Below are positions 1,832-47,385 of a DNA stretch of 64,000 nucleotides, one piece after another. The DNA is from a candidate division FCPU426 bacterium (GTDB lineage Bacteria > Oederibacteriota > Muellerivitia > Muellerivitales > Muellerivitaceae). The stretch is from contig CAWCKJ010000003.1 in NCBI GenBank assembly GCA_963796105.1, forward strand, positions 672,001 to 736,000, in the 5' to 3' direction. Positions within the stretch are counted from its first letter, which is position 1, and each line of letters begins with the position of its first letter. The position numbers and the translations under genes are program-made. Under the pieces are notes generated by a model, which was not told the DNA's origin, did no database searches, and was given only the letters and a program-made list of their open reading frames with translations.

Positions 1832-2734
1832 TTAGGACCCTAGATCCACTAGGAATTTACCGGAGCCTTTGGTTACGCCGTTCACCTGGATGAGATAATA
1901 ATAAACACCCGATGCCACTAAATTGCCATATCGGTTTCGTCCATCCCATAAAGCGACACCGTTATTCCCTTGGACCACCTGCACCAATTCCCCGGATAAG
2001 GTGAAAAAGGACGCGGTGGCGCCGGTCGGCACGCAATTAACCTTTAAATATCCCCCCACCGCCCATTTGGGATTGAAGGGATCCGGCCAAACATGAATGT
2101 TACAGACAGGAGTAAAAGTCGGTGTGATCGTAGGGGTCAAGGTTATGGTCGGAGTATTGGTAATGGTATTGGTGACTGTGGGTGTTGGTGTCAGGGTAAC
2201 GGTGGGCGTGATGGTAGGTGTCGGGGAGATCGTGGGGGTATCCGTTACGCAGTTGACGGTTAAAGTGATATAACTGCCGAAACTCGTTCCTGGTCCGCTA
2301 GGAACGGTATAGTACATGGTTGAATTAAGCACAAATGTGTTACTGAAACAATCTGTGACCTTCATGACCAACGTAACGTTACCTGACGCGCCAAGAGGCA
2401 GGTCCCCCAAAGTCCAAACCACCTGGCCGGATTCCAGGGTGCAAGATTGCCCCCCCGAGCAGGAAATAAAGGTCAGGTCGGGCGGAATCGCGGTCACAAA
2501 CGTCGTCTGGCTATCCGTATATCCATCAGGATTGGCATTGAGGTACCCGGGGCCGTATATCACGATATCGCCAATATTGTATTGAGCTTGGGCGCTTGAA
2601 AACCCCAGGAACAGGAAAAACACGGTCATCCAAAACATTTTCCACGGCCAGCCCGAATTGGTTTCCGCGGTTGATTGGTTTTTAATCACTTGTTTGTCCA
2701 AATTCCGAGAATATTCTCTTTTAAAAACCAGCAT
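1832..2734 (-). CDS. Secreted protein: DUF11-like domain, Thr/Pro linker, FlgD/T9SS-CTD-like C-terminus
   Basis: Signal-like FLFLGFSSAQA; IPPDLTFISCS...VVWTLGDL; TPT repeats; WPDPFNP...WDGRNRYGNLVASGVYYY. True start may be downstream (MFWM). Confidence 0.7.
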   Translation of the reverse strand: MLVFKREYSRNLDKQVIKNQSTAETNSGWPWKMFWMTVFFLFLGFSSAQAQYNIGDIVIYGPGYLNANPDGYTDSQTTFVTAIPPDLTFISCSGGQSCTLESGQVVWTLGDLPLGASGNVTLVMKVTDCFSNTFVLNSTMYYTVPSGPGTSFGSYITLTVNCVTDTPTISPTPTITPTVTLTPTPTVTNTITNTPTITLTPTITPTFTPVCNIHVWPDPFNPKWAVGGYLKVNCVPTGATASFFTLSGELVQVVQGNNGVALWDGRNRYGNLVASGVYYYLIQVNGVTKGSGKFLVDLGS

Positions 2735-2885
2735 TAAATGGATTTTTCACCATTAGTCGGGTGAAAAGAAACTTTTAATCATTACGCACTAAGGGAGTTT
2801 AGCACGAAATATTCGCATTGACGATTCCACGCTAATTAAATTCAGGGACAATCCAGCCAACACACATTAATGACAGAGGTATTAT

Positions 2886-3860: not shown

Positions 3861-3910
3861 GTTTTTCCTTTAAAAGCTAAGTCGATTCCAGGTAATTAAC
3901 GGAGATGAAA

Positions 3911-4753: not shown

Positions 4754-5158
4754 TTAATCCGTCTCATTCAGAATCGAATTTTAAACAACATTGCCAACAT
4801 CATTTCCGGAAACCCCAAAGATTTCATCTTTTAAGATCACGTTAAAAATTACTAGATATGCCATTTTATGGGGTGTTCATTGAAAAACATAGCCGCGTAA
4901 ACATGGTGGCGATTCCATTAATTGCCCTCATGAATATCTAATTTGTAATGAAAAACATTAAATAGTCGTGATATTCACAGACCATCAGAAAGCAGCGCTA
5001 TTTTACGGATCTTTGAAACCGTTTTCAGAGTCAACCTTGATTATCAAGTAAAAGTAAAAAATCCTCCCGAAAAGAAACGGAACTGTGAAAAATCGGGTAT
5101 ATTCTTAACAACAAAAAAAGACATTTGAAACAAACAATATTTCGAATTAGGGAACCTC

Positions 5159-8100
5159 TTGAAAAGACCGGGCCTTCTCATTTCCAATTTCATCTCTCAT
5201 GATTTTTCACTTTTTTCTTTTTTAAATCCAATCAAACGCCGTTATAGGTTCGCAGTCCTCGGAATTTTTTTAATTGTTCTTCCGGGGAAAGACGCCTATG
5301 CCCTGTTGGATACGCTATATGTCACAGGGAACCAGCTTGCCACCTCCCCTTCAAACGGTTGTACGCTTACACTTAAAGGCGTTGACGTGGATGGGTTGGA
5401 ATTCTCCCCCTATGGTTATGGGCCCGGCGGTAGCAGTTCCAATTGCGGCGGCTTTACCGGAAACAGCACCAACGGCTGCGGTGGAAATACCCTGGCGGCG
5501 GCCCAGGAAGCGGTCACGGCCTGGCATGCCACAGTCATCCGCCTTCCATTGAACCAGGATTTCTGGTTCGGTTGTTCCAATTCGATCACCCAGATCGCGG
5601 CCACCCAATACCAGTCGGCGGTATCCGCCATCGTCGGATACTGCGCCTCCAACAACTGTTATGTCATCCTGGACCTCCATTGGTCAGGCACCTATAGCGG
5701 CACTTCACCCACAACACCCTGTAGCGGATCGGGCTGGGGTACCGCCACGGGACAAGAAGCAATGGCGGATGCCAACGCTATCACCTTTTGGGGTTCCGTA
5801 GCCAGTATGACCTGGACCAAAAACAATCCAGCGGTCATGTTCGACCTGTACAACGAACCCACCAATATTCCCGCCGCGGCATGGGTTACCGGCGGAAGTA
5901 CAGGCGGAACCGATACCCCCTCCTGGACACCCGGAATGCAGGGACTGTTGAACGCGGTGCGCGGCGTAGGCGCCAATAATATTTGCTTGTTGGGCGGCTT
6001 GTCCTGGTGTTCAAACCTGAAAAGCGTCCTCAGCGCCCCAGGGCCAGTCACCAATAACGGTAATGGCGTCGTCTACTCAGCGCACTTTTACGGGTCCAAC
6101 GACGGAACCACACCCACAAGTTGGAACGCGGATGTGCCATCAAGTCTCTTGTCCACTGCCCCAGTTTTCGTCGGAGAATTCGGCGGTCCCACGACTTGTG
6201 GAACAGATCCTGATAATCCCACTTTCGACTCAAATATGATCGGCACTTCAGGATGGGCCGTCACAACCAATGGTGTTGTGGGAGCCACCGCCTGGTCATT
6301 TACCGATGATTCCTGCCCTAACATGCTTTCGAATTGGACTTGGACCGCCAACGCATGGGGTGCCGCCGTATCTACCTGGCTGGCGACGCCAATCCCCACT
6401 TGTCCTCCCATCACCCCCGGGCCGACTCTTACTCCGACTTTGTCTCATACCCCAACCCAAGTTGTCACGCCCACCTTTACCAATTCCTCAACCCGGACTC
6501 CCACTCCTTCTTCAACAAACACAAACTCTCCAACCGCATCAAGCACACAAACGCGCACGCCCACAAATACATCCACCAATACGGTGACCAATACCTTAAC
6601 TAATACATTAACCAGCACGCCCACCCTTACCGTGACGCACACAAATACACCCACTAACACATCCACTCCCACGCCAACCGCTTCCCCAACAGTCACCAGG
6701 ACCTACACACAAACCAACACCCTTACGAACACTTATACCAGCACCCCATCCCCGACTTTGACCCGCACGAATACCTCCACTAGCACCGTCACCAACACGG
6801 CGACCTTTACCTCAACTGCGACCAGAACAAACACGTCCACCAATACGGTCACGGCCACTCTGACGAACACTTCCACCAGCACCGCCACGAATACAGCGAC
6901 ATCCACTTCTAGTCCGACCAGGACAAATACCGCCAGCTACACCCCGACGCCTACTCCGACCGCAACTCGGACGAATACTTTGACCAACACAGCGACTGCC
7001 ACCTTGACGAATACCACGTCCAACACCGCCACCAATACGACAACACCCACTTTAACATCGACAAGGACCAATACACCGACAAACACTTCCACCAGCACCC
7101 CAACTTCAACGCCCAGCAATACCGCCACGAATACACCCACCAACTCGACAACAGCAACCTCGACTCGGACAACCACGCCTACGTCCACTAATACCGCTAC
7201 TTCCACCTCAACTTCGACTCCGACCAGCACCTATACGAGCACAGTCACCAACACGAGAACCAACACTTCCACCAATACAGCCACAGCGACGAATACGCCG
7301 ACAGTGACCCCCACCGCGACCAATACCAACACGGGGACCGCTTCCCCCACTAATACGCCTACGATCACGCCAACCAGGACCTCAACCTCCACCCCGACGA
7401 ATACCTCCACCGCTACTCCCACGCAAACGGCTACAAACACCCCCACCATTACGGCGACTGCCACGCCGACCAGAACCGCTACGCCGACCTCCACGAATAC
7501 TTCAACCTCCACAGCGACTTCGACTCCGACCAGCACCTTTACGACCACCGCGACAAGCACGAAGACCACCACGCCCACCAATACCCCAACGGCGGCAAAC
7601 ACGAATACCCCGACTGTGACACCCACAGCGACCAACACCAACACGGGAACCACATCCCCCACGAATACCCCAACGATTACCTCGACTAGGACTCCAACGC
7701 CCACACTGACAAATACTTCATCTTCCACTTCGACTCCGACTGTAACGAACACAACCACCAACACTTCAACGGCCACTACGACGCGGACGCCAACCCCTTC
7801 ATCCACGAACACCCCAACCCACACGCCTACATCCACCCAGACAAATACCTCAACCGCTACGCCGACTCCGACGCCTTCTTACACGTCCACCAGTACTTCC
7901 ACATACACGAAGACCACTACGCCCACCAATACCATGACGGCAACGAATACAAATACCCCAACGGTGACGCCCACTGCCACCACAACCAACACCGGGACCC
8001 AGCCGCCCACGAACACGCCGACCAATACCTCCGCCTTCACGAACACAGCAACTCATACCTTGACTACAACACCGACGAATACTTCAACTTCCACTCCGAC

Positions 8101-9484
8101 AGCGACGAACACATCAACGTCTTCGATGACGCCTACTGCGACCCGCACCGCTACCACGACGGTCACGAACACGATGACCGTTACGGCTTCGCCAACCCCG
8201 ACACCAACGGTGGCGAACACGTCCACCAACACACCAACGGCTACCCCAACCAGGACTGCGACTCCCACCTCTACCTATACTTCCACCTCGACCAATACTT
8301 TGACCGCTACTCTGACTTTAACACCCAGCTATACATCCACGAGTACGTCTACTTCGACGAGAACTGCCACACCTACATTTACCCCTACGGCGACTTTCAC
8401 CTCGACTATGACCCCTACAAATACATTCACGAGTACAGGCACTGCGACGAACACGAATACGCCGACTGTGACACCTACCACCACCAATACCAACACAGGG
8501 ACCCAGTCACCCACTAATACGCCGACTATAACGCCCAGCTTCACGAACACTCCAACGCAGACCCCGACACCCACAGCGACGGCTTCGATGACGTCTTCGC
8601 CAACTCCAACGGCGACAGACACATTCACCAACACCCCAACGTCCACCCCGACTGAGACGCCGACTTCTACCTTTACTTTCACGCTCACGAACACATTGAC
8701 GAATACCTCTACCTTCACACCGACGGCCACTTATACATGGACGAATACGCCGTCAAACACGCCCACTCCGACCGCAACTTATACTCCAACGAATACCAAT
8801 ACCGGGATCCAGTCACCCACCAACACACCGACGGCGACATTCACACCCACCCATACTCCGACTAATACGTCCACCTCGACGATGACGAATACGCAGACAC
8901 CCACCAACACCTTTACAAACACCTCCACCCCTACCTTTACCAGCACCAAGACGGCTTCGACTACAGCGACTCCTGCGTCATCGCCTACGCTCACCGCTTC
9001 GCCTTCCCCTACGGTCACGAACACGATGACCGTTACGCCAACTCCGACTGTCACCCGCACGCTGACCCCAAGCTTCACTTCGACGCCGACGGGGACATTC
9101 ACTTATACAGAGACTCCAACAAGCACTGCCACTTTCACGGCGACATTCACCGTGTCTTACACTCCAACGACCACCTTGACACAGACATCCACACCGGTAG
9201 GCAAGAATGGGGTGTTTATTTATCCGAATCCTGTGAGTGGTACTGAGCCTGTGACAATCCAGGTGACCCTGACGCGAACCGAGCCGTTGGTACGGATCGG
9301 GATATACACGTTGTCCTTCAGGAAGGTGAATGAGGTTGACCGGACCCAAGTGCCGGCAGGAGTCAGCGAGATAGCAGTCCCCCTGACGGACAAGGCCGGC
9401 AAACCTCTCGCGAATGGGATCTACTACGTAGTGTTCCAGGCGCCCCAGGGGCGCCTTGTCGCCAAATTGCTTATCTTGAGATGA
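5159..9484 (+). CDS. Secreted GH5 glycoside hydrolase with ~930-aa Thr-rich stalk and T9SS-CTD-like C-terminus
   Basis: VIRLPL, ILDLHW, DLYNEP (acid/base), YSAHFY, VGEFG (nucleophile), TAWSF; C-terminal IYPNP...LANGIYYV...KLLILR. Confidence 0.88.
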
Positions 9485-25921: not shown

Positions 25922-26907
25922 TATGCTTATGCACAAAGTGACCGTGCTGTAATGGGTTTTGCTAAGGCACATGCGGTCAAAGCACGGTGAAATAAGGAAT
26001 CGGGATCATGACGACGGTTGAACCGATAGGCATATTCACTTAGATACCGGCCTAAATACTTAGCATCAACGCCATGATGAGTTCCAATGATCCAGGCCTT
26101 GGCGTTGGAAATGAACCGGTGTACCCAGGGCAACCAACTTTCCAACTCTTTCGGGTCATTGGCCATCACCCGGTAGTCTGCCTCCACTCCTTTGAGTTCA
26201 CGCAAGGCTGGCGAAGCATCTGTGTTGAGGAAAGAGCCTTTTTCCATAGTCTGATTCACGAATTCCTGGCTCTCCCACTTGGTTTCCATAGCTACCTTCA
26301 CCTTGGCAAAACCCGCTTTTTCCTTCTTGCAACCATTCTCATCCACCCATTCCTTGCTTTCCACCGCCACCAAGACTTCCACTTGGTTTTCCTTGGCCTT
26401 TTTCCCAAAAACCGCCCCATCCAACTCAATGACGCCCTTTAGAGTATAGCTTTCGTCCTTTTGCCTAAGACCTTCCCGGATCTTATGCAATAGAAGCCAT
26501 GCCGAATGATCCGAAAGATTTAAATGCCGCTTCAGTTCCAGGGCCGAAATACCCCGTTTGCCCTGCATCATCAAACTGATGGCCCTGACCCAGGTTAAAA
26601 GAGGCAGCTTGGAGCTTTCAAAAATCGTCCCGGCGCGAAGCCGAAGACGTTTCCGGCAATAGTCACATTCCCTCACTTCAGGCTTGGCCTGGTGTTGCCA
26701 GAAGCTTTCGCCCTCACATTGGGGACAAACAAAGTCTTTCCCGCCGAAACGGCATCTCCACACCCATTGGCGGGCTTCTTCTTCCGTGTGGATTTTCCTC
26801 AGAATTTTAATGCTTTTCATCCGCTGGTAGCTCATGTACCACCTCCCGTAGCGGACAGTATACCTATGTATTCCTTTATTTCAAGGGTCACTTAATACAG
26901 AAGCATG
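25922..26907 (-). mobile_element. IS1595-family insertion sequence (ISSod11-like), 986 bp
   Basis: Imperfect TIRs TATGCTTATGCACAAAGTGACC and (reverse complement) CATGCTTCTGTATTAAGTGACC; 8-bp TSD GGTTTTCC at 25914-25921 and 26908-26915. Confidence 0.9.
25927..26835 (-). CDS. IS1595 family transposase
   Basis: Zn ribbon CPQC...CDYC, GTIFESSKLPL, IELD, NTD, WVHRFISNAK, YLSEYAYRFNRR. Confidence 0.93.
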   Translation of the reverse strand: MSYQRMKSIKILRKIHTEEEARQWVWRCRFGGKDFVCPQCEGESFWQHQAKPEVRECDYCRKRLRLRAGTIFESSKLPLLTWVRAISLMMQGKRGISALELKRHLNLSDHSAWLLLHKIREGLRQKDESYTLKGVIELDGAVFGKKAKENQVEVLVAVESKEWVDENGCKKEKAGFAKVKVAMETKWESQEFVNQTMEKGSFLNTDASPALRELKGVEADYRVMANDPKELESWLPWVHRFISNAKAWIIGTHHGVDAKYLGRYLSEYAYRFNRRHDPDSLFHRALTACALAKPITARSLCA

Positions 26908-29884: not shown

Positions 29885-31984
29885 TTATTGAAATTGACTT
29901 GCCGCCCCAGTTAATCCTTGATTTCGCATGCTGTTGATTTGCTGGAGTTGTTGGGCGGAAACGGAAATCGGTCTTCCCGGGAAAGCTTTCAAGTTGAGTG
30001 TAAAATATAATTGTTTTCCAGAATTGGGGTCTTCGGTGTAGCTGATCTGGGCTTCCCAATCATGTAAATCCCGGTAGATACTTAATGAACGGGTAATATA
30101 TTTCGCATTGGTTACATCATAATTTTCTATTAGTGCGAGCCTGTAATTTGTAAAAAATGCGAAATCGACCTCGCCGCCAACTTGAAATGTAGGAAGTGAC
30201 GGGGAAGGGAAATAACCTATGTTGCTGACATTAGGATCAACGTAATTACCGTTAATCATAAACCGCCACATATCCCGGGGACTTTTTAGGTTAATAACCG
30301 AATTTATGTCTTTCACCGCGTTGTCCTGGATTGAATAATCCATGATGGCTAAATAATTATAAAGGGGAGAAGGGGTAATATAGATTTCCTGGCGGAAATA
30401 GGTTAATCGGGAAGCTTCTGTTCCCACCATAATGTTAAAATCATAGGAGGTACTTGAGCGGATTCTAAATAATGAGCCTCCCAAAAACTCAACCGCGCCC
30501 GTTAAGAGGTTGGACGTAATTCCATGCGGCGGATCAGTGGAACGAATATTATCCAGTTTTTGATTAAAGGTATAACCAAGTGTCGAGGTTGCGTATTCCG
30601 TCCATCTCGCTGTCCAGGTGTTATTAGCGTCTAAAGTATGTGTTTCCCCGGAATTAGTCCCGTTCAAATCAGGCTTATCTTGAAAATTCTCGTTCATCGC
30701 GATTCGTGAGAATAAAGTTTGTGTTTGAAAAAGCTGGGCACTTTGTCCGACTCCCACTTCCCCAGTTAAGTGGTTTACATAATAGCCATCCGTTAAAGTA
30801 TAGGTATGATCCCCAGACAAACTCAAATCCCACTTTAACCAATTCCTTCCAATTAACCGCTGTGGAAAAAGATTGAAATTAAATTGCGGCAGGGATTGAA
30901 GGCTGCGGGTGAAATGGGTTTCAGTTGTATCGCCAATGGAAAAATCAGGGTTTTCCTGACGCCGGAGTAAAAAGCTAAAAGTATATTGGAGGCGGGTCAA
31001 TGTTGCCGAAAGATCATATTCACGATAAGTTGAAACCAAACTCGGGTCCCGACGAGCCACCGAGTAATCCTGGCTGAACATTCCATCTTCAGGATAGTCC
31101 ACCTCCAACCGGCCTTGAAAGTTGGATGAAAATGCCCAAAGTCCCCTGGCTCTCGATTCCCAACGTAATCGATGGGTGTCTTTTTCGTCGATTCCATATC
31201 CATAAAGCGATAAAGCCGAATATTCGTTTAATCCCAATTCATGCCTGACTCCCAGGCCGAGCCCTTTTTTGAAAAAGTAATCCGTATAGAGAGCGCCATA
31301 GCTCGTCGGATTAAAAAGATAGCTTTCAGTCAAAAGAACATAATTACCAAGGTAGTCGGTTTGTCCCGTGGAAACCGAAAATGGCGTTTTCAAGTCATGA
31401 ATGGTTCGAACAAAAAACGGAAAGTAAAATACCGGCACCTTGCCTATATATAGCACAACATTTTCCGCGACTAAATAATCGCCTGAATATATGGTGATCT
31501 TCCCAGTCTTCATGTAAAAATGCCGGTATCCCTCCGGATAATCGCAAGTGGTTGTGACAGCATCCTTGATAATAATTTTTTGATCCTTGATATCGATCTC
31601 CGAACCAGTGCTAATCCATGGCGGAGAGGTGGTTTTTATGTTGTAAGCCTTTCCCTCTCTCGTCTTCAAGTTGTAATTTAAACTATTGGCCTCAATTTCA
31701 TCGGCTTCGCTCTGCCAGACAACATGTCCTTTGGCTTCCACCTCTTGCGCCGTCACGTCATAGCGAATACTGTCAGCATATAAATTGACTTTATCCTGTT
31801 GGATGTGGACTTGCCCTTTTGCCATAACGATATTTTGATCCCTCAGATACTCGATGGTATCGGCTTGCAAACGAACCTGGCCGTTAAGGGAAAAAGAGAG
31901 TTCGGCCCGAAGTGGACTGGATAAAATAATCCAAGCCAAAAGATAAAACAAAGAAACGGATATTTTTCTGTGGCGGAAATTCAT
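29885..31984 (-). CDS. LPS-assembly protein LptD-like
   Basis: N-terminal OstA-like jellyroll ([17 protein letters not shown]), TTTCD, PVFYFP, barrel-like C-terminus with RDLHDW. Confidence 0.75.
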
Positions 31985-33174
31985 TTATTCGGAATAAATC
32001 CCTTGGGATTAGAGTTGTATTTCTTTAGACGCGGTAATAGCCACAGCCAGTTCCAAAAATCATGTTTATGATTCAACCAATAAGCCATTCCGTAGCCAAC
32101 CATGATCAAGAAAAAATTAGGCAGCCACATGGCCATAAAAGGGGAAATGATACCCATGGGGCCTCCCGTATCACCATAAATAATGAAACAGTCGTATAGC
32201 GCCGCAAGCAAAACCGCCAAAACAGGCCCCAGAAATGATCCTGCCCGAGTCATGAGTCCCAATGGGATACCGATAAACGCAAATGCCAAGGTTGAAAAAG
32301 GGAGGGAAAATTTCTTGTGGAATTCTGTTTCATCATACCGGGTGTCTTGTTTGTCCTTTTTTTCCTGTTTTATTTTGGCGGCTAATTCCTCCAAGGAAAT
32401 ATTCCTGGAATTGCTCAAATCCAAGGGTCCGGGATTCCCTTTTTTCGAATTCAAATCCAAGGAACAGCTGTCAAAATCGACTTGAAACAAATTATTCATA
32501 GTCTGATCCCGTTTCGTGCCCAACTGTTGCATAATTCCGTTCTGGAGTTCCAAAATGACATGATAATTTTGAGGATCTTGTTTGAGTATCCCTTGTTTTC
32601 CAAGGATCAAACGATAGGGATATCCTTTTTCATCCATCATCTCGACGATAACGTTTTTCAAAACATCCCGAGCCGAATCTTTTTGATCTACAAATAAAAG
32701 ATAGCCCTCGAAATCCTTAATAAATACTCTTTCACGAACTAAAATCGCTGATCTTTCGGTAAAAACTTTATATTGAAGTTTAACAAAGGAAATATTTCCC
32801 CAAGGCAAAACCGTATCCATAAAAACCACCATGAAAAAACTCATGAGAAGAGATAAAACAATAATAGGCCACGTCACAATCCAGAGTGAAAAACCGCAAG
32901 ATTGGATAGCTAATGATTCGCGATCCGCGCTTAATCGGCCGTAAACAACCAATAAAGCTGTTAAAAAACCGATCGGGATGACCAGGACCAAAAAACTGGG
33001 TTGAATGTAGAGCAGAAGTAAAAAAGAATTAAGTATTCCCACATGATAAACCAACAGATAACTCAAAAACTCCCTTAAATAATAAAGCAAATTAAATGTA
33101 AAGAGGAAACAACCAGACGCGAGAAAAAAAGGCGGGGCGATGGAGCTTAAACAGTATCGCAATAATATAGGCAC
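31981..33174 (-). CDS. LptF/LptG family LPS export permease
   Basis: GRLSADRE, FHKKFSLPF, GIPLG, WLPN; overlaps the lptD-like start. Confidence 0.88.
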   Translation of the reverse strand: MPILLRYCLSSIAPPFFLASGCFLFTFNLLYYLREFLSYLLVYHVGILNSFLLLLYIQPSFLVLVIPIGFLTALLVVYGRLSADRESLAIQSCGFSLWIVTWPIIVLSLLMSFFMVVFMDTVLPWGNISFVKLQYKVFTERSAILVRERVFIKDFEGYLLFVDQKDSARDVLKNVIVEMMDEKGYPYRLILGKQGILKQDPQNYHVILELQNGIMQQLGTKRDQTMNNLFQVDFDSCSLDLNSKKGNPGPLDLSNSRNISLEELAAKIKQEKKDKQDTRYDETEFHKKFSLPFSTLAFAFIGIPLGLMTRAGSFLGPVLAVLLAALYDCFIIYGDTGGPMGIISPFMAMWLPNFFLIMVGYGMAYWLNHKHDFWNWLWLLPRLKKYNSNPKGFIPNK

Positions 33175-33563: not shown

Positions 33564-34952
33564 TTATTTGTTTCCTGTGGGCGGAAGAGCTGGTAAATCC
33601 AGATCAGAAGTTCCAGCAGCAGGCAGGGGTGCGGTTCCGTTATTTGAAGCGGCAGGAGAATTCAAATCCTCCAATGGGGGAATTCCTTGGTTTGAAGTGG
33701 AGTTCAACGGAGGCAATAACGGAGCATTGCTGTCCGGAGGCATCATGGAATTATTGTCATTTGAAATCGGGGGCACAGGCAACGAAGGATTTGATGAAGG
33801 TGCTTGATTATTGGAATTAGGTAAATCCGGCAGGGCTAAAGAGGCTGAATTAGAAGTCAGGTTGGATCCAGTACTTGGAAGCAGCGGTACCATGCTTTCA
33901 TTTCCTGCGGGTGCCGGTTGCCCACTGGGTAAAGGCGGTAAATCAAGAGCATTTCCGGTCGTGGAGGATGGGTTATTAGGCTCGGGAAGTGGTGGAACTC
34001 CAATACCGCTATCATTCACCGTAGGTGGCAAAGCCGGAATTTCATTAAGTGCAGGAGGTAAAGTGGGGGCCTGTTGTGTTCCCGAATTATTCAAATCGGG
34101 CAAAGCGGGTGGCTCTTGGTTGTTTTCGTTTGGTGGATTCAAAGAAGGAAATTCATTATTTCCAGAAGTAGCCGGACCAACGGGTTGCAATGTGGAAACA
34201 TTATCCATCGGGAGAGGGGGTAATCCACCAGCATTAGAACCATTCTCCATGGGATTTTGGTTAATTGTTGGGTTAGTCCCGTTATCTGGTAAAAGCGGCA
34301 GTTCACCCGGGGAAAGGGTAGAGCTCATTCCAGGAAGGGGAGGTAAGTTGTTGTTAGTTGAAAGGGGTGTTGTATTACCAGGTAAGGGAGGCATAGTAGA
34401 AGGATTTGTTTTTACGCCCTGAGTCGTTGAACCAATAACAGGAGGAGCAGGCTTCTTCTTAGCCCCAACGTTTTTATGAAACCGTCCCATATCAGGTTCT
34501 ACGGAAAGATTTGCCGGCAGAATCCTTTTAATTTCCTCAGTGATTTTTTCCGCCACCAAATTATCCGACGGGTCAACTGTCAACTCTATAAACTCAAAAG
34601 TGGATGTGTAACGCTGAACTTCACTCACTTTAATAAATCCAACCGGATCACCTTTAGGAGTGAACAAGGCAAAAACATCTCCCTTCACAACTCCGGCCAA
34701 GCTGCCTTTATCAATATAATTTCCGCTGTATTGTTTTCCCGGGGTTCCTCTTAATGCGATCACTTGAGCGCCAAGAAAGGGATGATTAAAATGGTGAATG
34801 AAAAGATTTCGTAATGCTACTTTCGTTTTCACGGAATAGGGTAAATCGGTCCCCGTGGATGCCCCAAGCCCGTAAAGCGCATTTGAAACCGCTGGAATTA
34901 AACTTAGGGCGGATAGCAAAAACAAAAACGAAGAAAGCGGGCGGAATTTCAT
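33564..34952 (-). CDS. Secreted protein with FlgT-C-like domain and Pro-rich PxLP-repeat tail
   Basis: Signal peptide; YIDKGSLAGVVKGDVF...VGFIKVSEV; repeated LPPLP-like motifs; start set at ATG 34952. Confidence 0.65.
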   Translation of the reverse strand: MKFRPLSSFLFLLSALSLIPAVSNALYGLGASTGTDLPYSVKTKVALRNLFIHHFNHPFLGAQVIALRGTPGKQYSGNYIDKGSLAGVVKGDVFALFTPKGDPVGFIKVSEVQRYTSTFEFIELTVDPSDNLVAEKITEEIKRILPANLSVEPDMGRFHKNVGAKKKPAPPVIGSTTQGVKTNPSTMPPLPGNTTPLSTNNNLPPLPGMSSTLSPGELPLLPDNGTNPTINQNPMENGSNAGGLPPLPMDNVSTLQPVGPATSGNNEFPSLNPPNENNQEPPALPDLNNSGTQQAPTLPPALNEIPALPPTVNDSGIGVPPLPEPNNPSSTTGNALDLPPLPSGQPAPAGNESMVPLLPSTGSNLTSNSASLALPDLPNSNNQAPSSNPSLPVPPISNDNNSMMPPDSNAPLLPPLNSTSNQGIPPLEDLNSPAASNNGTAPLPAAGTSDLDLPALPPTGNK

Positions 34953-35015
34953 GAAAACCTCGGAAAAGGTAAGTTTATAATCTAAACACAGCACGCTTAT
35001 AATAATCAAAAAACA

Positions 35016-35075: not shown

Positions 35076-36035
35076 TTAAAGGCGGGTAATGAGCGAAAGA
35101 TAATGGATTCCACCGATGGAATTGCTAACAAATGCGTAATCCACCTCGAATAAGTATGCCCAAATGCCAACCCCTGCAGAAGGAGTAAAGGAATCATTAT
35201 CAAATTGCAATCCCTTTGTTTCAAATCCGCCCCGAATGGCCACAAATTGACGGTACCAATATTCCACGCCAAAATGATAATTATTAAGAGCTTCACCGGC
35301 ATAAAGTGTATCCGCATCCAAATTAACGGTTAAAGTACTCATGGGGACCTGGGTATTGTTTGATTGCTGGCGTTTTCCCAATTCTTGGCAATAAGAAAGC
35401 CCCAGCGTTAAAGATGGTTGTAATACCTGAGTGGGATGAGTATTTGTGTTCTGCCATGTAATATAAGAACCGCCCGTGATGTCCCGGCCAACCAAAGCGA
35501 TCGTAAATTCCTTGACGGGTTTAAACATAACACCTAAGTCGGAACCAATACCAAATGCTGATGCAGTATATGCATCGGTCTTTAAAAATTTAATTGTCCC
35601 TCCAAGGGTAAACTGTTTTCCAATTTTCCAGCCTCCCGATAAGAAACCGAATTGATCAACATAGGAAGTGGAACCCGTAATTTGTCCTTGTTGGTTAGTA
35701 ATATCAATATTATCCACTCCCAGTCTTCCATAACTTAAGGCATAAGACCCAGCCGATTGCGTTTTAAAAGCTAAATTGACAAAGTCGTATGTTTGAAGAT
35801 CATTTTGGGGAGAATGCATGGTAGTTATTTCTATATCGTCAATCAACGCTAAGCCAGCCGGATTCCAATAAGCCGCTGTTGCGTCATTAGCATCAGCTGC
35901 GAAAGCCCCTCCCATCGCTAATGGTCTTGCCCCGGCCCCTTTTGTCAAAACCTCCGCAGCGTAATATGTTGTATCGGCATAGACCGCGAAGGGAATTGAA
36001 ACCACCAAAAAAGATAAAATCAATACCGTATTCAT
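35076..36035 (-). CDS. PorV/PorQ (UPF0164)-like outer-membrane beta-barrel
   Basis: GARPLAMGGAFAADANDATAAYWNPAGL, GVEYW, VDYAF; start set at ATG 36035. Confidence 0.8.
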   Translation of the reverse strand: MNTVLILSFLVVSIPFAVYADTTYYAAEVLTKGAGARPLAMGGAFAADANDATAAYWNPAGLALIDDIEITTMHSPQNDLQTYDFVNLAFKTQSAGSYALSYGRLGVDNIDITNQQGQITGSTSYVDQFGFLSGGWKIGKQFTLGGTIKFLKTDAYTASAFGIGSDLGVMFKPVKEFTIALVGRDITGGSYITWQNTNTHPTQVLQPSLTLGLSYCQELGKRQQSNNTQVPMSTLTVNLDADTLYAGEALNNYHFGVEYWYRQFVAIRGGFETKGLQFDNDSFTPSAGVGIWAYLFEVDYAFVSNSIGGIHYLSLITRL

Positions 36036-36590
36036 TTTTTTTGGAATCACAGCTATTCTCCTCTCACTTATACAAATTATTTGGGCATCGCTGTTCAAAA
36101 GTTTAACAACCAAATTTTGAAAATTCAACTTTAATAGACTTCAACAGTCTTTTAAATTCCGGAATTTTCACCGATGCCATTTTAAATTTTCCGAAAAAAC
36201 AAACGGTTCGGAAAACCCGTTCAATTTCATTTTAGGCGCGACTTGGATGTGGCATCTTGTTTTCGGCCAAAGCGTCCATTTCAATCACCAATTTGCCTAT
36301 TTTAACCACCAAACAACCAGTCAACTTGAAGGGATTATTAAGCAATTCACCGCCCTTTTGGGTTCTAACCGTCACGCTTATCATAGGCCGTATTTCTGCT
36401 GAATATTCCCGTGAAAATTTCCTGGCTATAAATACGCAGTTCTAACTACAACAGACGTGCGTTTGAATATTTTTTATAAAAGCAAGGACAACTTAGGGTT
36501 TCTTTTAATTCCCCTCAATGTTCCGCCTAGAAAAATTATTTTGATAATCAGCATTCAGGTCTATTCGGGGGATTATTAATGGTCGTTTTA

Positions 36591-36726: not shown

Positions 36727-39120
36727 ATGCCCGAAACTAAAATATGCAGTAAATGCGGCGCTAAAAATCCCGCCTCGAATAATTTTTGCGAACAATGTGG
36801 GACTAAGATCTCAAATCAAAGCGATATGTCGGCAGTTCAGGAAAAAAACCAAAAATCCAGTTCAACGTCCTCCAAATCAATCAAAAATACAATTCCTTTC
36901 GAAACCAAAACCGAAGAAAAAGTTTCCGCGATAAATCCATCAGGATCGGGTTTTTCTTTTTCCTGGCCGCAAATTATCTATGCTCTCCTGCTTTTAATTA
37001 CAGTATTCACCCGGTTTGATCATTTGGGTTTAAAGCCCCACCATCACGATGAAAGCATGCACGCTTTTTATTCATATCAATTGTTCAAGGACGGGGATTA
37101 CGAATACAACCCGATGATGCATGGTCCTTTTCAATTCCACGGCAACGCGTTCATGTATTATCTTTTCGGGGTATCGGACGCCACTTCCCGATATTTAGCG
37201 GCCACTTTTGGTTTGTTAACAGTTATTCTCGCCATCTTTCTCGGACCATTCCTTGGCCGGGCAGGAACACTCATCGCGACGGCTATGATCGTATTTTCCC
37301 CCAGCTTCATGTACTTCGATCGCTTCACTCGCGAGGATGCTTATATTGCCGGCGGGACCTTCGCGATGATTGTTTTCCTTTTCCGGTTTTACCGCTCCCG
37401 TAAACCACTGGATCTTTGGTTGGCTTCTCTGGGATTTATTGTTGCATTCAGCACAAAAGAATCCATGTTTATTACCATCGCCGTTATCGGTACATACCTT
37501 TTCATCCGTTTACTGCCCTGGATAGATGTATTAATAGCGGGAGGAATAACCGCGTTAGGCGTTTTATCCCAAATCGTGATATTAAAAGTTGATTCCCAAA
37601 TGCCCCAGCAACAGCGCTTGCTGTTCTTGCTTTTTCCGGCGTTGCTCGCCTTCGGATTCACCCTTTATCAGCTTTTTTCGCGCTGGAAAACAAATCAAAA
37701 ACAAACCCCCGAAAGCAAGCTTTGGGCTGTCATTAAGGGCCTTGAAATTGAAAAAATAAAATTTGACTTATTGTATCTTGGGGCTTGGTGGTTTTTATGC
37801 CTCATCATGCTAAAAACCTCATTCCTTCATCTAAACCAGCCAACTATCTTTTCGCTGATCATGCTAATCGCTTATTTCGCGGTTTTGTTCCGCTTTTGTT
37901 GGCTTTGGATGAAAAATGTTTCTCCTGCCCTGACGGGATCCATTTCTCTAGTCAGCATTGTTTTCACTCTTCTGTTTACGACCTTTTTCACGGTCGGCGC
38001 CAACGAGCCCGATTTTTTAAGCCGGATTCACCACATTTTATCGGATCTCTATCAAGGCGCCTTTGGGGGTCTGGAATATTGGTGGGGGCAACATGATGTC
38101 CATCGGGGTGATCAGCCTCCTTATTATTATTTGGTACAACTACCGGCGAACGAGACGGTTTCCTTCCTTTTCTCAATGGTCGCGTTGATTTATTACGGTA
38201 TATTTAAAAACAAGAACATGCCTCTCTTTTTAGGCTATTGGTATGTGGGTTCCCTGGGGCTCTTTTCCTGGGCCGGTGAAAAAATGCCTTGGTTGATCCT
38301 CCACCCCTTGCTTCCCTCCCTTTTGTTGACTGCTTACTTCGTGGGACAAATTTGGGAATCAAAACCGCTGACTCAGGCTTGGCGCGCGGCTCGCTCCACC
38401 GCGCTTCTCATTTTCGCCTTGTTGCTTTCATATTCCTTGCATTCCGCCATACTTTTAAGCTTTTACCATGAATGCAACCCTGTGGAGCCCTTGGTTTATG
38501 TTCAATCGGGCCCCGATTGCAAGGAAGTGGAGAGAATCATCAGGGAAATATCTTATGGAGAAACCGGGGGCCCGGACCTGTCTTTGACGATTGAGGACAA
38601 GTGTTCATGGCCTTTCGCTTGGCAATTGAGGGATTTCTCAAAACGCAACCATCCTTCCACAATCACCATGGCGGACAATCCCATCGTCCTGACCGGCACC
38701 GAGTCTGACGCACAAGCCTACCCCATCTTGAGCCAAGCTGGATATGTAAACCGCAAATACAAGCTCCGGGTATGGTGGGTGCCGTCTTGGTTTAAAAAAG
38801 GATTCCCAGGCACCGAGATGAATTTCGGCCTCTTCAGGGAGTGGTTATTCAGCAATTTCATCCCACTGCCCTGGTACAGCCCCCGTCCAGACATGGTGGA
38901 TTGGAGCGACCTGAAAAAATGGATCCTTTACAGGGAAGTTTGGTCGGATATGGGTAGCTATAACATGAGAATGTGGGTGAAGCAGGATCTGGCTCAAAAG
39001 TACGGTTTCACCGAGACCAACAGGTCCGATATCCCGGCTGATTATCCAAAAGTCGAACTAACTCCCGTTCCGACACCCGCTGGGCCCGCCATGATTCAAC
39101 ACCACAAGCATGGCAAATAA
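36727..39120 (+). CDS. TIGR03663/Agl23-like GT-C-fold membrane protein with N-terminal zinc ribbon
   Basis: CSKC...CEQC; RFDHLGLKPHHHDESMH, YNPMMHGPFQF, RFTRED, TKE, GLEYW, EKMPWL, EPLVYVQS. Confidence 0.78.
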   Translation: MPETKICSKCGAKNPASNNFCEQCGTKISNQSDMSAVQEKNQKSSSTSSKSIKNTIPFETKTEEKVSAINPSGSGFSFSWPQIIYALLLLITVFTRFDHLGLKPHHHDESMHAFYSYQLFKDGDYEYNPMMHGPFQFHGNAFMYYLFGVSDATSRYLAATFGLLTVILAIFLGPFLGRAGTLIATAMIVFSPSFMYFDRFTREDAYIAGGTFAMIVFLFRFYRSRKPLDLWLASLGFIVAFSTKESMFITIAVIGTYLFIRLLPWIDVLIAGGITALGVLSQIVILKVDSQMPQQQRLLFLLFPALLAFGFTLYQLFSRWKTNQKQTPESKLWAVIKGLEIEKIKFDLLYLGAWWFLCLIMLKTSFLHLNQPTIFSLIMLIAYFAVLFRFCWLWMKNVSPALTGSISLVSIVFTLLFTTFFTVGANEPDFLSRIHHILSDLYQGAFGGLEYWWGQHDVHRGDQPPYYYLVQLPANETVSFLFSMVALIYYGIFKNKNMPLFLGYWYVGSLGLFSWAGEKMPWLILHPLLPSLLLTAYFVGQIWESKPLTQAWRAARSTALLIFALLLSYSLHSAILLSFYHECNPVEPLVYVQSGPDCKEVERIIREISYGETGGPDLSLTIEDKCSWPFAWQLRDFSKRNHPSTITMADNPIVLTGTESDAQAYPILSQAGYVNRKYKLRVWWVPSWFKKGFPGTEMNFGLFREWLFSNFIPLPWYSPRPDMVDWSDLKKWILYREVWSDMGSYNMRMWVKQDLAQKYGFTETNRSDIPADYPKVELTPVPTPAGPAMIQHHKHGK

Positions 39121-40704: not shown

Positions 40705-40803
40705 TCAAAAGTCTCCTTGCGAGAAAATCAATCGGGATTATAAGCTCAACTGGAATGAATCGGCTAAAATTCACCCCGTATCAACTGGCGAATTATTCGT
40801 TCT

Positions 40804-42138: not shown

Positions 42139-45100
42139 TTACCTGATGAAAATAATCCTCTTGGTTTTCCGGTCCATGGGTTCCACCAGATAGAATAGGT
42201 AAACCCCGCTCGCGCAGGTATCCCCATACTTGTTGGACCCGTCCCAGAAGAAGCTGCCTTGGAACGGCGCTTCCAGGTACCGGCTGTCCAATGTCTTGAT
42301 GTGCTCCCCCGCCGAGTTGTAAACGGTTAATTGGAAGGGCCCGGGATATTGGCTCGTCCCCACGAAGATGGATACCGGCTCTCCCCCTCCCTTGAACACG
42401 TTCTTCGTCACAGTGAAGTAATCCACCGTCGGAGTCCATGTCGGGATCTGGGTCATCGAGGAAGTCTCCGTGGGTGTGAAGGTCACCGTGGGCGTTAAGG
42501 TCCATATGGGTGTGTTGGTTTTCGTCGGCGTCGGGGTGCGAGTGGAAGTCGGAGTCCGGCTAAAGGTGGGAGTGGACGTTGAGGTTCGGGTATTGGTCAA
42601 GGTCGGGGTTGAAGTGTATGTCCGGGTGAAGGTCGGGGTGCGGGTATTCGTGGGGGTATTGGTGGCAGTGGGCGTGTTGGTCGAAGTCCTGGTATTCGTA
42701 GCGGTATAGGTGTTCGTCGGGGTGTAGCTAGGCGTGGGTGTCTTGGTATTCGTGGGGGTAAAGGAGGTGGTAGGGGTGTTGGTCGAAGTCCTGGTATTCG
42801 TAGCGGTATAGGTGTTCGTCGGGCTGTAGCTAGGCGTCGGAGTGTAGGTATTCGTGGAGGTAAAGGTGGGGGTAGGGGTGTTGGTGGTTGTAAAAGTGTT
42901 GGTGGGGGTAGTTGTATTGGTCGGGGTATTCGTGTTGGTGGGCGTGTTGGTGGACGTGGGGGTGTTGGTCGGCGTGTGTGTTGGGGTCAAAGTAGGGGTA
43001 TTCGTGGGCGTATTGGTGTTAGTCGGGGTATTGGTATTGGTCGGGGTATTCGTGACTGTATAGGTGTTGGTGGGAGTTGAGGTATTGGTAGCGGTATTTG
43101 TATTGGTGGGAGTATTGGTGTCCGTCGGCGTATTAGTGTTAGTTGTAGTGTTGGTCGCGGTATAGGTGTTAGTCGATGTATTGGTATTGGTCGGTGTGGC
43201 GGTATCAGTCGGAGTGTTCGTATTCGTCGGGGTGTAAGTGGCGGTATTGCTGTTAGTCGGCGTATTCGTGAAGGTCTGAGTGTTGGTATTGGTAGGTGTA
43301 TTGCTGTTTGTGGGTGTGTAGGTCGGTGTCGGAGTAAGCGTGCTGGTCGGCGTATTCGTGGGGGTATATGTATTTGTGGGTGTGGAAGTGTTCGTCGGCG
43401 TGTAGCTGGGTGTAAATGTGAATACGGGCGTATAGGTGGAGGTATTGGTCGGAGTCGGGGTGGGAGTCAGGGTCGATGTATCCGTGGGTGTCGATGTTGG
43501 GGTGTTGGTGCTCGTGGGTGTGTTGGTCGGGGTCGGGGTGTTGGTATTGGTTGGCGTGTTCGTGGGTGTGTAAGTATTCGTCGGAGTGAAAGTGTCAGTC
43601 GATGTAAATAAGGGAGTGTAGGTCCACGTAGGGGTTTCAGTGGATGTATCGGTTGGAGTAGGAGTTGGCGTCTGGGTGGGAGTGGACGTGTAAGTAGGTG
43701 TCGGAGTGGTTGTGGGGGTATTAGTCGAGGTATTGGTCGGGGTCGAAGTGGGTGTGGCTGTCGGCGTGGGAGTAGGTGTCGTGGTTGGAGTATTGGTGGA
43801 CGTCGGTGAAGGAGTACGCGTCGGAGTGACAGTAAAGGTGTTCGTGGGAGATGTCGTCCCGGTTGGGGTATCAGTAGGAGTGGACGTAACCGTGGGCGTG
43901 GAAGTTGGAGTCGGAGTAGAGGTGGTGGTTGGAGTCAAAGTCGGGGTTTTGGTTGGGGTGGAAGTGGGTGTAGAAGTAGGGGTGGGGGTGGAGGTAGTCG
44001 TGGGAGTAGGAGTTGGTGTGGGTGTTGGAGTCCTAGTCGGGGTGGAAGTCGGCGTCGGCGTGGGGGTCGTGGTAGGCGTTGGCGTCGGCGTATTGGTGGG
44101 TGTAGAAGTCGGGGTATTCGTAGGGGTGGGAGTGGGCGTCACCGTCGGGGTGGGAGTAGGTGTAGGGGTCGGGGTCTTGGTCGGGGTGATGGTAGGGGTA
44201 TTCGTGGGCGACTGGGTCCCTGTGGGCGTATTGGTCGGAGTCGGGGTGATGGTTGGCGTGTGGGTGGGGGTTGGAGTCGGAGTGGTGGTGGGTGTAGGTG
44301 TATTCGTGGCAGTAGGAGTGGGGGTGGGAGTCCTCGTGGGAGTCGGGGTTGGGGTTGTTGTGGGGGTGGGGGTCGGGGTATTGGTGGGCGTTCTTGTGGG
44401 GGTATTGGTCGGAGTCGGGGTGGGTGTCGCGGTGGGTGTTGGAGTAGGCGTATTGGTAGGTGTAGGCGTAGGGGTATTGGTGGGTGTGGAAGTCGGAGTC
44501 GTGCTCGGGGTGGGTGTAGGTGTTTTCGTCGGGGTGGGTGTTGGGGTATTAGTTGGGGTCGGCGTTGGAGTGGTGGTGGGTGTCGGCGTCGGTGTATTAG
44601 TAGGGGTAGGCGTCGGAGTCCTTGTTGGAGTAGGCGTCGGCGTGGTGGTGGGAGTGGGCGTGGGCGTATTAGTCGGTGTGGGGGTCGGTGTATTCGTCGG
44701 AGTTGGCGTAGGAGTTGTTGTCGGGGTCGGGGAAGGGGTTGGGGTTGGCGTCCGAGTCGGGGTATTAGTAGGTGTCGGTGTGGGCGTAATCGTGGGTGTA
44801 TTGGTGGGAGTCGGGGTCGGAGTCTTGGTTGGGGTAATAGTAGGCGTATTCGTGGGCGACTGAGTCCCGGTTGGGGTATTCGTGGGCGTCGGGGTGATAG
44901 TTGGCGTGTGGGTGGGTGTAGGGGTGGGAGTGGTTGTAGGAGTAGGAGTCGGAGTAGGGGTGGGCGTTCTTGTTGGTGTATTGGTAGGAGTAGGTGTCGG
45001 AGTGGTTGTCGGTGTTGGAGTCGGGGTGTTAGTAGGGGTAGGTGTGGGAGTTCTCGTCGGGGTAGGCGTTGGGGTTGTCGTAGGGGTGGGAGTCGGCGTA

Positions 45101-47385
45101 TTCGTGGGTGTATTGGTGGGTGTTAGAGTAGGAGTATTCGTCGGGGTTCGGGTCGGGGTTGGAGTAGGCGTGTTGGTAGGTGTCGGAGTGGGGGTATTCG
45201 TGGGCGTCGGGGTGGGAGTGGTGGTCGGCGTCGGAGTAGGTGTCCTTGTCGGGGTCGGTGTGAGGGTATTGGTGGGGGTTGGAGTAGGCGTTGTCGTCGG
45301 GGTAGGAGTCGGGGTGTTGGTAGGCGTGGGAGTAGGAGTCCTGGTTGGGGTTGGGGTCGTTGTGGGTGTAGGAGTAGGCGTATTGGTAGGGGTCGGACTG
45401 GGGGTAGGTGTGGGTGTGGGGGTAGGTGTTCTGGTCGGTGTGGGAGTTGGGGTTACGGTCGGGGTGGGGGTAGGAGTGTTAGTGGGAGTCGGAGTAGGAG
45501 TATTGGTTGGAGTGGGTGTTGGGGTCCTGGTCGGGGTTGGAGTGGGTGAGGGTGTCGGGGTAGGAGTCGGTGTGTTGGTGGGGGTAGGCGTCGGAGTCCT
45601 GGTTGGAGTAGGGGTTGGCGAAGCCGTGGGAGTCGGAGTAGGGGAAGTTGTGGGAGTCGGAGTAGGAGTATTGGTTGGAGTGGGTGTTGGGGTCCTGGTC
45701 GGGGTTGGAGTGGGTGAGGGTGTCGGGGTAGGAGTCGGTGTGTTGGTGGGGGTAGGCGTCGGAGTCCTAGTCGGAGTTGGGGTTGGCGAAACCGTAGGAG
45801 TCGGAGTGGGGGAGGTTGTGGGGGTCGGAGTAGGAGTCGGAGTCCTGGTCGGGGTTGGAGTTGGCGATACCGTGGGCGTGGGGGTGGGGGTATTGGTCGG
45901 GGTCGGAGTGGGACTCCTCGTGGGGGTGGGGGTAGGTGTATTCGTAAAAGTATAAGTGTAAGTAGGAGTGTACGTGAAAGTGTAGGTGTTGGTATGGGTG
46001 AAAGTGGGCGTAACAGCCGGGGTCGGGGTGTAGGTATAAGTGTAGGTGGGGGTGGGAGTATAGGTATAGGTGTAGGTGTTGGTATGGGTAAAGGTGGGTG
46101 TGATGGCGATGGTCGGCGTATAGGTATAGGTGTGGGTGGGGGTCGGGGTCGAAGTGAAGGTATAAGTGTAGGTGTAGGTATAAGTGTAAGTATGGGTAAA
46201 GGTGGGGGTTAGCGCCGGGGTGGGGGTATAGGTAAATGTCGGGGTATAGGTAAAAGTATGAGTATAAGTCGGCGTGTTGGACCAGGTAAAGGTCGGGGTC
46301 CAGCAAGGGATGTTGAAAGTAACCGTGTTGGAGGTTTTTCCCTCGATGGAAAAGTTATTGGTAGCAGTCGTGCATTGGTTGTTCACCATGCCGTTGTTGT
46401 CCGTCGCGTATTCCTGGAAGGTGACACAGGAATTTCCGGCAATTCCTTCCGGCCAGATGACGGTAAGCTGGCTTCCTCCCAATCCGTTGACATAGGGCTC
46501 GGTGGCGATGTAATTCCCGTTTTGTACCGAAACACCACCCATATCCAGAGTTTGTCCCTGCCAATAGCTCTGGCTGATCGTGTCCGTCATGGTGACGGCG
46601 CCAGTCTGGGGACCACCGGTGTTGCAGACCGTCAGGCAGAACTCATAGGTGATGTTGTTTCCGGATTCATTGGGTCCGCCGCAGACGGCTTTCCCGACCG
46701 TGAAGGCGGGCGGCCCCAGGGTCGTCGAGGAGGCCGGAATCGCCACAGCTTGCGAGAAAAACAAAGCCCCATTACAGTTGCTGGTGCTGTAGTCCCCGTT
46801 AGCGTCCGTGGATACATAAGGGACCCTCGCGCCGCTCACGGGGTTCCAAAGGCTCTGGCCCCAGCAGCATTCGGAAGAAGTGGCGCTGACCTGGGACGCG
46901 CTGCCCCATCCGCTGGTGCTGTAGTCGGTCGCGTACCAGTTGGTGGCGGGGGGAGTCGTGGGATTCCCCGAACTGATGTAATCCATCTTGAGGCCGCCGC
47001 TTCCGCTGGTGATCTCGGAGTGCTGGCCGTTGGAGCAGGTGATGTCCAGGTCCCAGGAGGAGTAAAGGTTATTGCAGGCGGTGTTTTGGGTATAAACGCT
47101 GAGATAAACTTGGGAGCCGGTTAAGAGGGACGTGGGAACGGTGATGCAGCCCGGGGGACAACTGCCGCTGCCGTCCCAGTTGCAATAATTGATCTGTCCC
47201 AGGTAAACGCCGCCCACATAGACCTGGGACCAGTCGTCGCTGGATACGCAAATCTTGGCGGAACTAGGCGTGCATTGGGACCAGGATTGGAGCGGAAGAC
47301 CCAAGAGAAGCAAAAATCCAAAAACTTTTAAACTCCGGATCATCCAAAAGGATGGTTGGAAACTTCTTAATGCGCGATGATTCAT
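42139..47385 (-). CDS. Large secreted protein: Cys-rich head, DUF11-like domain, ~1300-aa Thr/Pro stalk, FlgD/CTD-like C-terminus
   Basis: Signal peptide; [13 protein letters not shown]...[12 protein letters not shown] repeats; [10 protein letters not shown]...[16 protein letters not shown]. Confidence 0.8.

Follow-up and report, generated by a model that had tools for sequence, protein, structure and literature searches.

A SprA-type pore, PorV-family barrels and C-terminal domain proteins without a detectable GldLM motor in a candidate division FCPU426 bacterium

Results

Three cargo candidates and two barrels in the window

We analysed a 64,000-nt stretch of DNA (hereafter the window) from a candidate division FCPU426 bacterium (GenBank assembly GCA_963796105.1, contig CAWCKJ010000003.1, positions 672,001 to 736,000), in which three genes for putatively secreted proteins share a C-terminal domain (CTD) and two genes encode barrels of the PorV family. 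A first-pass annotation had proposed that these five open reading frames (ORFs), all of which we find where it placed them, belong to a pathway related to, or reduced from, the secretion system of type IX (T9SS). The genome as a whole holds a SprA-type pore, 19 PorV-family barrels and more than 100 CTD proteins, and GldLM, GldN and PorU were not detected in it.

Cargo 1 (1832-2734, minus strand) is a frame of 300 amino acids (aa) whose start probably lies near 2635, cargo 2 (5159-9484, plus strand) has 1441 aa, and cargo 3 (42139-47385, minus strand) has 1748 aa. All three N-termini are hydrophobic by eye and by a hydropathy heuristic, which fits the proposed secretion signal. The heads differ, as had been claimed: that of cargo 1 is DUF11-like (a weak Pfam match, E 1e-4), that of cargo 2 is a GH5 domain (5450-6259, E 2e-30), and the Cys-rich head of cargo 3 has no Pfam hit. 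Thr-rich stalks of the Thr/Pro type with 41-49% Thr follow at residues 157-214, 404-1348 and 360-1654, with lengths of about 58, 917 and 1295 residues; the two long ones lie at 6368-9202 and 42424-46308. The CTDs themselves (1835-2104, 9206-9481 and 42142-42423, on the strands of their genes) carry the motifs by which they had been recognised, including the terminal basic-hydrophobic strands KFLV, KLLILR and KRIIFIR. The CTD of cargo 1 matches the C-terminal region of PorZ (E 9e-8), and that of cargo 3 is matched by the CTD hidden Markov model (HMM) described below. By eye, the Cys-rich head of cargo 3 (46306-47280, minus strand) resembles the starts of other cargoes, one of which has a different CTD class; its single-sequence fold reaches a predicted local distance difference test (pLDDT) value of 43.

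Barrel 1 (24897-25853, minus strand; 318 aa) and barrel 2 (35076-36035, minus strand; 319 aa from its ATG, being the ATG-started form of the frame 35076-36128) have no C-terminal extension. Both belong to the PorV family (the first-pass annotation had called them PorV/UPF0164-like), with NF033709 (PorV/PorQ) scores of 175.2 bits, the highest in the genome, and 90.5 bits at a cut-off of 90. Neither reaches the PorV equivalog cut-off (250), and the closest model to barrel 2 is PorV2 (NF052325, below cut-off). The FadL-family model PF03349 (Toluene_X) gives 22.5 and 20.4 bits at a cut-off of 29.7, and the UPF0164 match is weak. In the PDB, a profile of the barrels matches PorV of Flavobacterium johnsoniae over its full length (E 2.3e-42) and TodX only partially (E 1.2e-6).

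A large family of C-terminal domains

The CTDs of cargoes 2 and 3 are 18-20% identical to that of cargo 1. An iterated HMM started from the three converged on 123 of the 16031 ORF C-termini in a six-frame translation of the genome and on none of the 16031 reversed C-termini, and each window CTD was recovered with its whole sequence class removed from the HMM (E 9.5e-12, 4.5e-17 and 6.9e-14). The low identity thus reflects more than chance, and the proposed common domain of about 90 aa stands, with a fold like that of type A T9SS CTDs. It ends at most 5 residues before the stop in 121 of the 123 proteins; three hits lack the terminal strand. A stalk of at least 30 residues is found in 101 of the 123 CTD ORFs versus 93 of 3961 other ORFs, and stalks adjoining CTDs reach up to about 1600 residues. 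Judged by eye, the true number of cargoes is likely to be about 110-115.

Using a BLAST threshold specific to this analysis, the CTDs fall into five large classes of 36, 19, 18, 12 and 9 members. Cargoes 2, 3 and 1 belong to the classes of 36, 19 and 9 members, respectively, and related heads are paired with different CTD classes. These indicate that tags and heads have been shuffled. The largest head cluster has 14 members across two CTD classes. In a sample of 20 heads from the 123 CTD proteins, 15 gave a hit. Most sampled heads are glycoside hydrolases (including GH5, GH8, GH9, GH12, GH30/59 and GH62), CBMs, peptidases (including S8 and kumamolisin-type ones), lectin folds or propellers.

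Searched against the PDB, a profile of 43 CTDs from this genome matches PorU (E 4.3e-10), PorZ (5.3e-8) and the translocon-bound F. johnsoniae CTD (9.8e-6). Modelled with a pLDDT of 96.4, the CTD of cargo 2 forms a seven-stranded immunoglobulin (Ig)-like sandwich; of 48161 chains compared, the PorU CTD is closest to it (Z 12.3, root-mean-square deviation 1.9, 89 residues aligned), with mirolase (Z 11.4) and PorZ (Z 10.8) among the other CTD matches. Among 69 aligned CTDs (these 43 plus 26 from other lineages), the type A model TIGR04183 matches 54 at E<=0.01, FlgD_ig matches 51, and the type B tail model TIGR04131 matches two weakly; the cargo 2 CTD scores 22.2 on TIGR04183 at a cut-off of 23. 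Long CTDs with an extra hairpin make up 67 of the 123 by a loose pattern. According to PMC11285876, the CTDs of PorU and PorZ stay on after secretion.

Pairing of barrels with cargo genes

It is also evident that barrels and CTD genes are coupled. Of the 19 PorV-family ORFs in the genome, ten begin between -27 and +1 bases from the point where a CTD gene ends (binomial p 4e-11). The barrels thus co-occur with CTD proteins, and their likeness is to PorV rather than to FadL-type transporters. Only one of the ten paired CTDs is in the five large classes, versus 93 of the remaining 113 (Fisher p 6e-6). Extensions of more than 100 aa, presumably periplasmic, with TPR, FN3, FlgD-Ig or OmpA domains, are found at the C-terminus of 13 of the 19 barrels, and nine of the ten paired barrels bear an extension of TPR, FN3 or FlgD/OmpA type. 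In other lineages a CTD gene is present at 37 of 44 barrel loci (kin not being independent), and all 41 genomes searched hold 10-46 PorV-family matches each.

About 100 cargoes are left unpaired, versus nine barrels, and neither window barrel has an adjacent cargo gene. The window barrels may well carry the three window cargoes, a link that is not genetic. A quick barrel tree with many long branches groups them with their orthologues and leaves the deep order unresolved. When barrel 1 and the CTD of cargo 2 were co-folded, the pair scored 0.80 and the highest of three controls 0.00, with run-to-run contact agreement of at least 94% and partner pLDDT of at least 84. That mark was attained by 116 of 157 solved pairs and by 2 of 215 mismatched pairs. 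Because PorV-CTD complexes have been solved, the score points to likeness and not to binding.

Several loci outside the window show further arrangements of barrels. Directly upstream of rod genes resembling flgF/flgG (names by eye) there are two PorV barrels whose extensions are FN3 and FlgD-like (L101:12845-16589; C3:423845-427589). An operon at L102:7359-15105 (C3:563359-571105) encodes a PorV-FlgD-OmpA fusion, a TPR lipoprotein, a long TPR protein, a barrel-like protein and a bare PorV. Three cassettes (L056:568-4604, L055:966-5308 and L055:11567-14556; C4, C12) each combine an extracytoplasmic function (ECF) sigma factor, an anti-sigma-like membrane protein ending in a FlgD/CTD-like domain, a CTD protein (in one case nearly only CTD, 128 aa) and an extended PorV barrel, the extension being TPR in two of them. 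Their content suggests cell-surface signalling via a PorV-type barrel.

A SprA-type pore outside the window

The first-pass annotation had recognised no SprA homologue, which is true of the window, but the genome has one at C3:212289-218342. This 2017-aa ORF ends in Phe and shows four collinear matches to TIGR04189 (best E 6.6e-34). Against the PDB, a profile of 48 sequences of its family, whose members include proteins of Elusimicrobiota and of Endomicrobium proavitum, a cultured bacterium with the same type of SprA, matches SprA alone (E 3.9e-74). Across the phylum, 58 of the 61 genomes sampled have a SprA. The SprA_N model PF14349 matches nothing in this genome or in any control, which reflects insensitivity of the model, since the full-length TIGR04189 found SprA. 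An Atlas search with a SprA homologue gave only matches below 0.9, with SprA_N on 12-20% of members and no taxa given.

Of 21 sprA loci, 13 have an lptF/G gene in the neighbourhood, and at 13 sprA is immediately followed by a CTD gene; a skp-type (OmpH) gene is about 7 kb from sprA. Directly after sprA in this genome lies a gene for an FN3-like CTD protein (L053:13357-18213; C3:218356-223212) whose homology across families extends beyond the CTD; we regard it as a putative core partner of SprA.

Motor, ring and sortase genes were not detected

The genome is 96.8% complete, and counts in it are based on all ORFs or on a relaxed set of 4083 genes. GldL and GldM (TIGR03517, TIGR03513, PF22827, PF12081), GldN, the PorU-type peptidase C25 and PorP/SprF (PF11751) gave no match, each with a positive Flammeovirgaceae control. 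GldK gave partial sub-threshold matches only, the best of 63 bits versus a cut-off of 350, and none in two relatives. Peptidase C25 is absent from the matches in all ten family genomes searched, and GldM has none in 61 phylum genomes, a search in which no control was positive. SprA was found in all 11 outside genomes (three Elusimicrobiota, Flammeovirgaceae, Kapabacteria, Calditrichia, KSB1, Zixibacteria, Cloacimonadales, Gemmatimonadota and Stahlbacteria), whereas GldL or GldM exceeds the cut-off only in Flammeovirgaceae. Either the motor-less state is widespread, or the motor models recognise only Bacteroidia forms. The outer-membrane half of the pathway matches the canonical system but motor, ring and sortase, three of its defining parts, were not detected, and we therefore regard it as a variant of T9SS.

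Other energisers were also considered. The genome has five MotA/TolQ/ExbB genes, one of them flagellar. At the four non-flagellar loci, no PorV or sprA gene lies within 9 kb; by eye, three of them adjoin genes for probable TonB-dependent receptors and the fourth is close to a bamA-like gene. No PorV-linked ExbBD-TonB operon was found in the genome. Inspection by eye of sequence starts at the 21 loci showed no motor-like family that recurs next to sprA. The genome has FliG and no flagellin match, and in the phylum sample FliG is found in 44 and flagellin-type proteins in 9 of 61 genomes. Fifteen SprA-positive genomes, two of them 100% complete, lack FliG, and the flagellar motor was thus rejected as the general energiser. 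A TPR lipoprotein (C3:568123-569337) considered as a universal SprE-like part was rejected, being found in 9 of 41 phylum genomes, several of these matches weak.

The conserved block around the window barrels

Both window barrels lie in a block with the order barrel 2, Pro-rich gene, lptF, lptD, uvrA, barrel 1, crp, polyprenyl synthase and nuoA. Barrel 1 adjoins uvrA and crp in all six closest loci, and barrel 2 is present in all three loci that reach it; they are likely to be inherited general carriers for unpaired cargo. The first-pass annotation had placed the barrels around lptD and lptF/G. An lptD-like gene is indeed present (29885-31984, minus strand), with one lptF/G-type gene rather than two (31981-33174, minus strand), and barrel 1 shares the block with lptD but is parted from it by uvrA and an IS1595-family transposase (25927-26835, minus strand). 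The transposase lies between uvrA and barrel 1, and its site is empty in six of six related loci. The Pro-rich gene (33564-35009, minus strand), conserved between barrel 2 and lptF, encodes a secreted protein with a small globular domain, a long LPPLP-repeat tail (700-840 aa in relatives) and no Pfam hit.

Divergent from barrel 2, an Agl23/PMT-type membrane glycosyltransferase-like gene (36727-39120, plus strand; TIGR03663, 235 bits, above cut-off) is a candidate for glycosylation of the Thr-rich stalks. A lipoprotein-like bacterial serpin (PF00079, E 2.5e-102) is encoded at 57300-58631 (minus strand), and an Rfam search of the window gave no match. Elsewhere in the genome, a 1299-aa ORF (C6:309341-313240) has an N-terminus that by eye we take to be like that of a Cas12b-type nuclease.

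Placement of the host

In quick trees of RpoB, a single gene, the genome falls outside an eight-row clade of the Fibrobacteres-Chlorobi-Bacteroidetes (FCB) group (support 90, then 100) and outside Elusimicrobiota. The phylum formed one clade at support 97 in the first tree and was not recovered as a clade once NC10 had been added. The nearest named RpoB proteins are labelled candidate division FCPU426 (66%), and they cluster with those of same-phylum genomes. With RpoB outside FCB and the motor, ring and sortase undetected, the host does not appear to be an FCB member with a complete canonical T9SS. Cellulolytic Goldbacteria have been placed in the FCPU426 cluster in a paper whose main text is silent on T9SS (PMC7031533).

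Discussion

A display pathway that may work without a dedicated motor

Given the parts, their homologies, the coupling of their genes and the non-detections, we consider it probable, with some reserve, that the SprA-type pore, the 19 PorV-family barrels and the more than 100 CTD proteins form a type IX-like pathway that works without GldLM, GldN or PorU and in which the CTD stays bound to its barrel as an anchor. The related pathway proposed by the first-pass annotation is thereby supported, but it is not reduced to CTD and PorV, as SprA is present and the carriers are expanded to 19. That annotation had also expected a distinct system to show many CTD proteins and PorV paralogues in the absence of motor genes, and the genome, with its 123 CTD-like ORFs, agrees with this expectation.

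The proposed steps come from comparison and modelling rather than from cells. Cargo would be exported by Sec, as the hydrophobic N-termini suggest. By analogy with F. johnsoniae, it would then enter SprA, and its CTD would dock on a barrel at the lateral gate, a contact that has been modelled. The barrel-cargo pair would leave the pore without a dedicated motor; speculatively, the long and flexible Thr/Pro stalk that adjoins the CTD might allow barrel and CTD to drift away ahead of the passage of the folded head. The CTD would remain uncut, and the barrel would serve as a one-use anchor that permanently holds the head on its stalk. Two logics may coexist: ten cargoes would each use a private barrel encoded directly behind them, and the roughly 100 unpaired cargoes with their five large CTD classes, cargoes 1 to 3 among them, would depend on stand-alone barrels, for instance barrels 1 and 2.

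Several observations weigh against this reading. In F. johnsoniae, cargo loads without energy and is trapped without the motor (PMC10994853); because extraction there needs energy, a truly motor-free cycle would need a changed pore. The SprA homologue scores below the TIGR04189 cut-off and is about 390 aa shorter than the 2403-aa SprA of F. johnsoniae. The motor HMMs derive from Bacteroidia and are positive in one of the 11 outside SprA genomes, which may point to blindness of the models. Since 7 of the 61 phylum genomes encode C25 proteins, CTD cleavage may take place in some relatives, and a PorU/PorZ-type hairpin alone is no bar to it (PMC11285876). At least three of the 123 CTD hits look like periplasmic anti-sigma domains rather than cargo. 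FlgD (1.2e-5) comes near the true CTDs in the PDB profile search, and unrelated domains of the common Ig sandwich reach Z 11.6 and 11.3 against the cargo 2 CTD. The co-fold score is possibly memory, because PorV-CTD complexes have been solved (8GL6, 8GLK).

The energy needed for extraction in F. johnsoniae lends some weight to another explanation, in which the same SprA-PorV-CTD pathway is energised by a motor that the GldL and GldM models miss or that is borrowed (TolQRA, ExbBD-TonB or a flagellin-less flagellar motor) and that pulls on the periplasmic TPR, FN3 or OmpA arms of the barrels. Long extensions on 13 of the 19 barrels would suit such pulling, as would the five MotA/TolQ/ExbB genes, the two barrels upstream of flgF/flgG-like genes and FliG without a flagellin match. 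However, the window barrels have no arm to pull, the four non-flagellar motor loci stand apart from PorV and sprA genes, no motor-like family recurs at the 21 sprA loci, and the 15 SprA-positive genomes without FliG exclude the flagellar motor as a general solution; we find this explanation unlikely, although worth keeping in view. It is improbable that cargo leaves through SprA and is then freed or cut from its CTD by a protease other than PorU, with the barrels acting as recycled shuttles. For type A cargo, PorV is presumed to be used repeatedly (PMC12618676), and the excess of unpaired cargoes over unpaired barrels would suit recycling, but neither this genome nor the ten family members have a detected C25 protease, stalks of up to about 1600 residues next to the CTD fit a tether, and translationally coupled cargo-barrel pairs fit one-to-one use, like the shuttles of type B (PMC12618676).

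We give very little credence to the view of the CTD as a generic Ig module like that of FlgD and of the barrels as FadL-type handlers of lipids or lipoproteins, like BamG or the UPF0164 proteins of Treponema, with no common secretion pathway. Its appeal lies in the FlgD_ig matches, in similar domains inside anti-sigma-like proteins and three barrel fusions, in the window barrels being near lptD and lptF, and in the role of the FadL-family protein BamG in outer-membrane biogenesis of F. johnsoniae (PMC12611786). A generic module would hardly be terminal in 121 of 123 proteins and have its genes coupled to barrels and sprA, and the PorV match of the barrels is 36 orders of magnitude above that of TodX.

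Returning to the motor-less pathway, a wider version of it is a tentative possibility that we hold with more doubt than belief. SprA, PorV carriers and uncleaved CTDs might form a self-sufficient, energy-independent display system across FCPU426-type bacteria, Elusimicrobiota and non-Bacteroidia FCB, to which GldLM/KN and PorU would be later additions in Bacteroidia; a CTD code of five large classes and private pairs might direct every cargo to a barrel of its own, with some barrel-TPR pairs perhaps signalling to ECF sigma factors.

T9SS genes have been stated to be absent outside FCB phyla (PMC11285876, 2024), SprA has been called FCB-specific (PMC12611786), and in the current model the GldLM motor is required to pull cargo from SprA (PMC10994853). 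A phylum-wide set of pore, carrier and tag without a detectable motor challenges both the restriction to FCB (PMC11285876) and the requirement for the motor (PMC10994853), and it makes the purpose of the motor a question that can be tested by comparing this SprA with that of Flavobacterium. Our literature search, whose scope left out supplements and most subscription papers, including the SprA distribution table of PMC12611786, found no description of SprA, PorV or CTDs in FCPU426, Goldbacteria or Elusimicrobiota, or of a motor-less T9SS; the parts seen of 10.1101/2023.11.21.568195 and PMC7323717 hold nothing relevant. The split between private and general carriers, the CTD classes, the conserved window barrels and the flagellar-motor test are new here. 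The pathway may offer uncultured polysaccharide degraders a route to display cellulases on long stalks, and it might supply orthogonal tag-anchor pairs for surface display.

Comparison with known systems

The pathway shares with the type A T9SS of F. johnsoniae and Porphyromonas gingivalis (SprA/Sov, PorV; 6H3I, 8GL6, 8GLK) a SprA-family pore, PorV-family barrels, a seven-stranded tag on secreted enzymes and adhesins, and a skp-type gene near sprA. It differs in that GldL/M/N, PorU and PorP are undetected, 19 barrels take the place of the single PorV that serves every type A cargo, SprA is shorter and the host lies outside FCB. The PorU-PorV and PorZ-PorQ attachment complexes (6ZA2, 5M11) give the best CTD matches in both sequence and fold; they also have long hairpin CTDs, and their CTDs are kept. 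Here, however, it is the bulk of the cargo and not a pair of machinery subunits that bears this CTD type, and a sortase and an anionic lipopolysaccharide (A-LPS) transfer protein appear to be lacking. FadL-family barrels (TodX, TbuX, BamG; UPF0164) belong to the same superfamily as ours, and the Toluene_X and UPF0164 matches are partial and weak (E 1e-6 to 1e-3) versus a full-length match to PorV.

The type B CTD system with PorP-SprF and PorE (PMC12618676) is similar in having a shuttle gene directly downstream of the cargo gene, stand-alone shuttles for orphan cargo, and modules for tethering to the cell wall. In contrast to it, the barrels here are of the PorV family (no hits to PF11751), the CTDs are like those of type A, and the TPR, OmpA and FN3 modules are part of the barrel protein instead of forming a separate PorE. 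Judged from its genes, the system described here joins tags like those of type A to the type B arrangement, in which a cargo gene is followed by the gene for its cognate shuttle.

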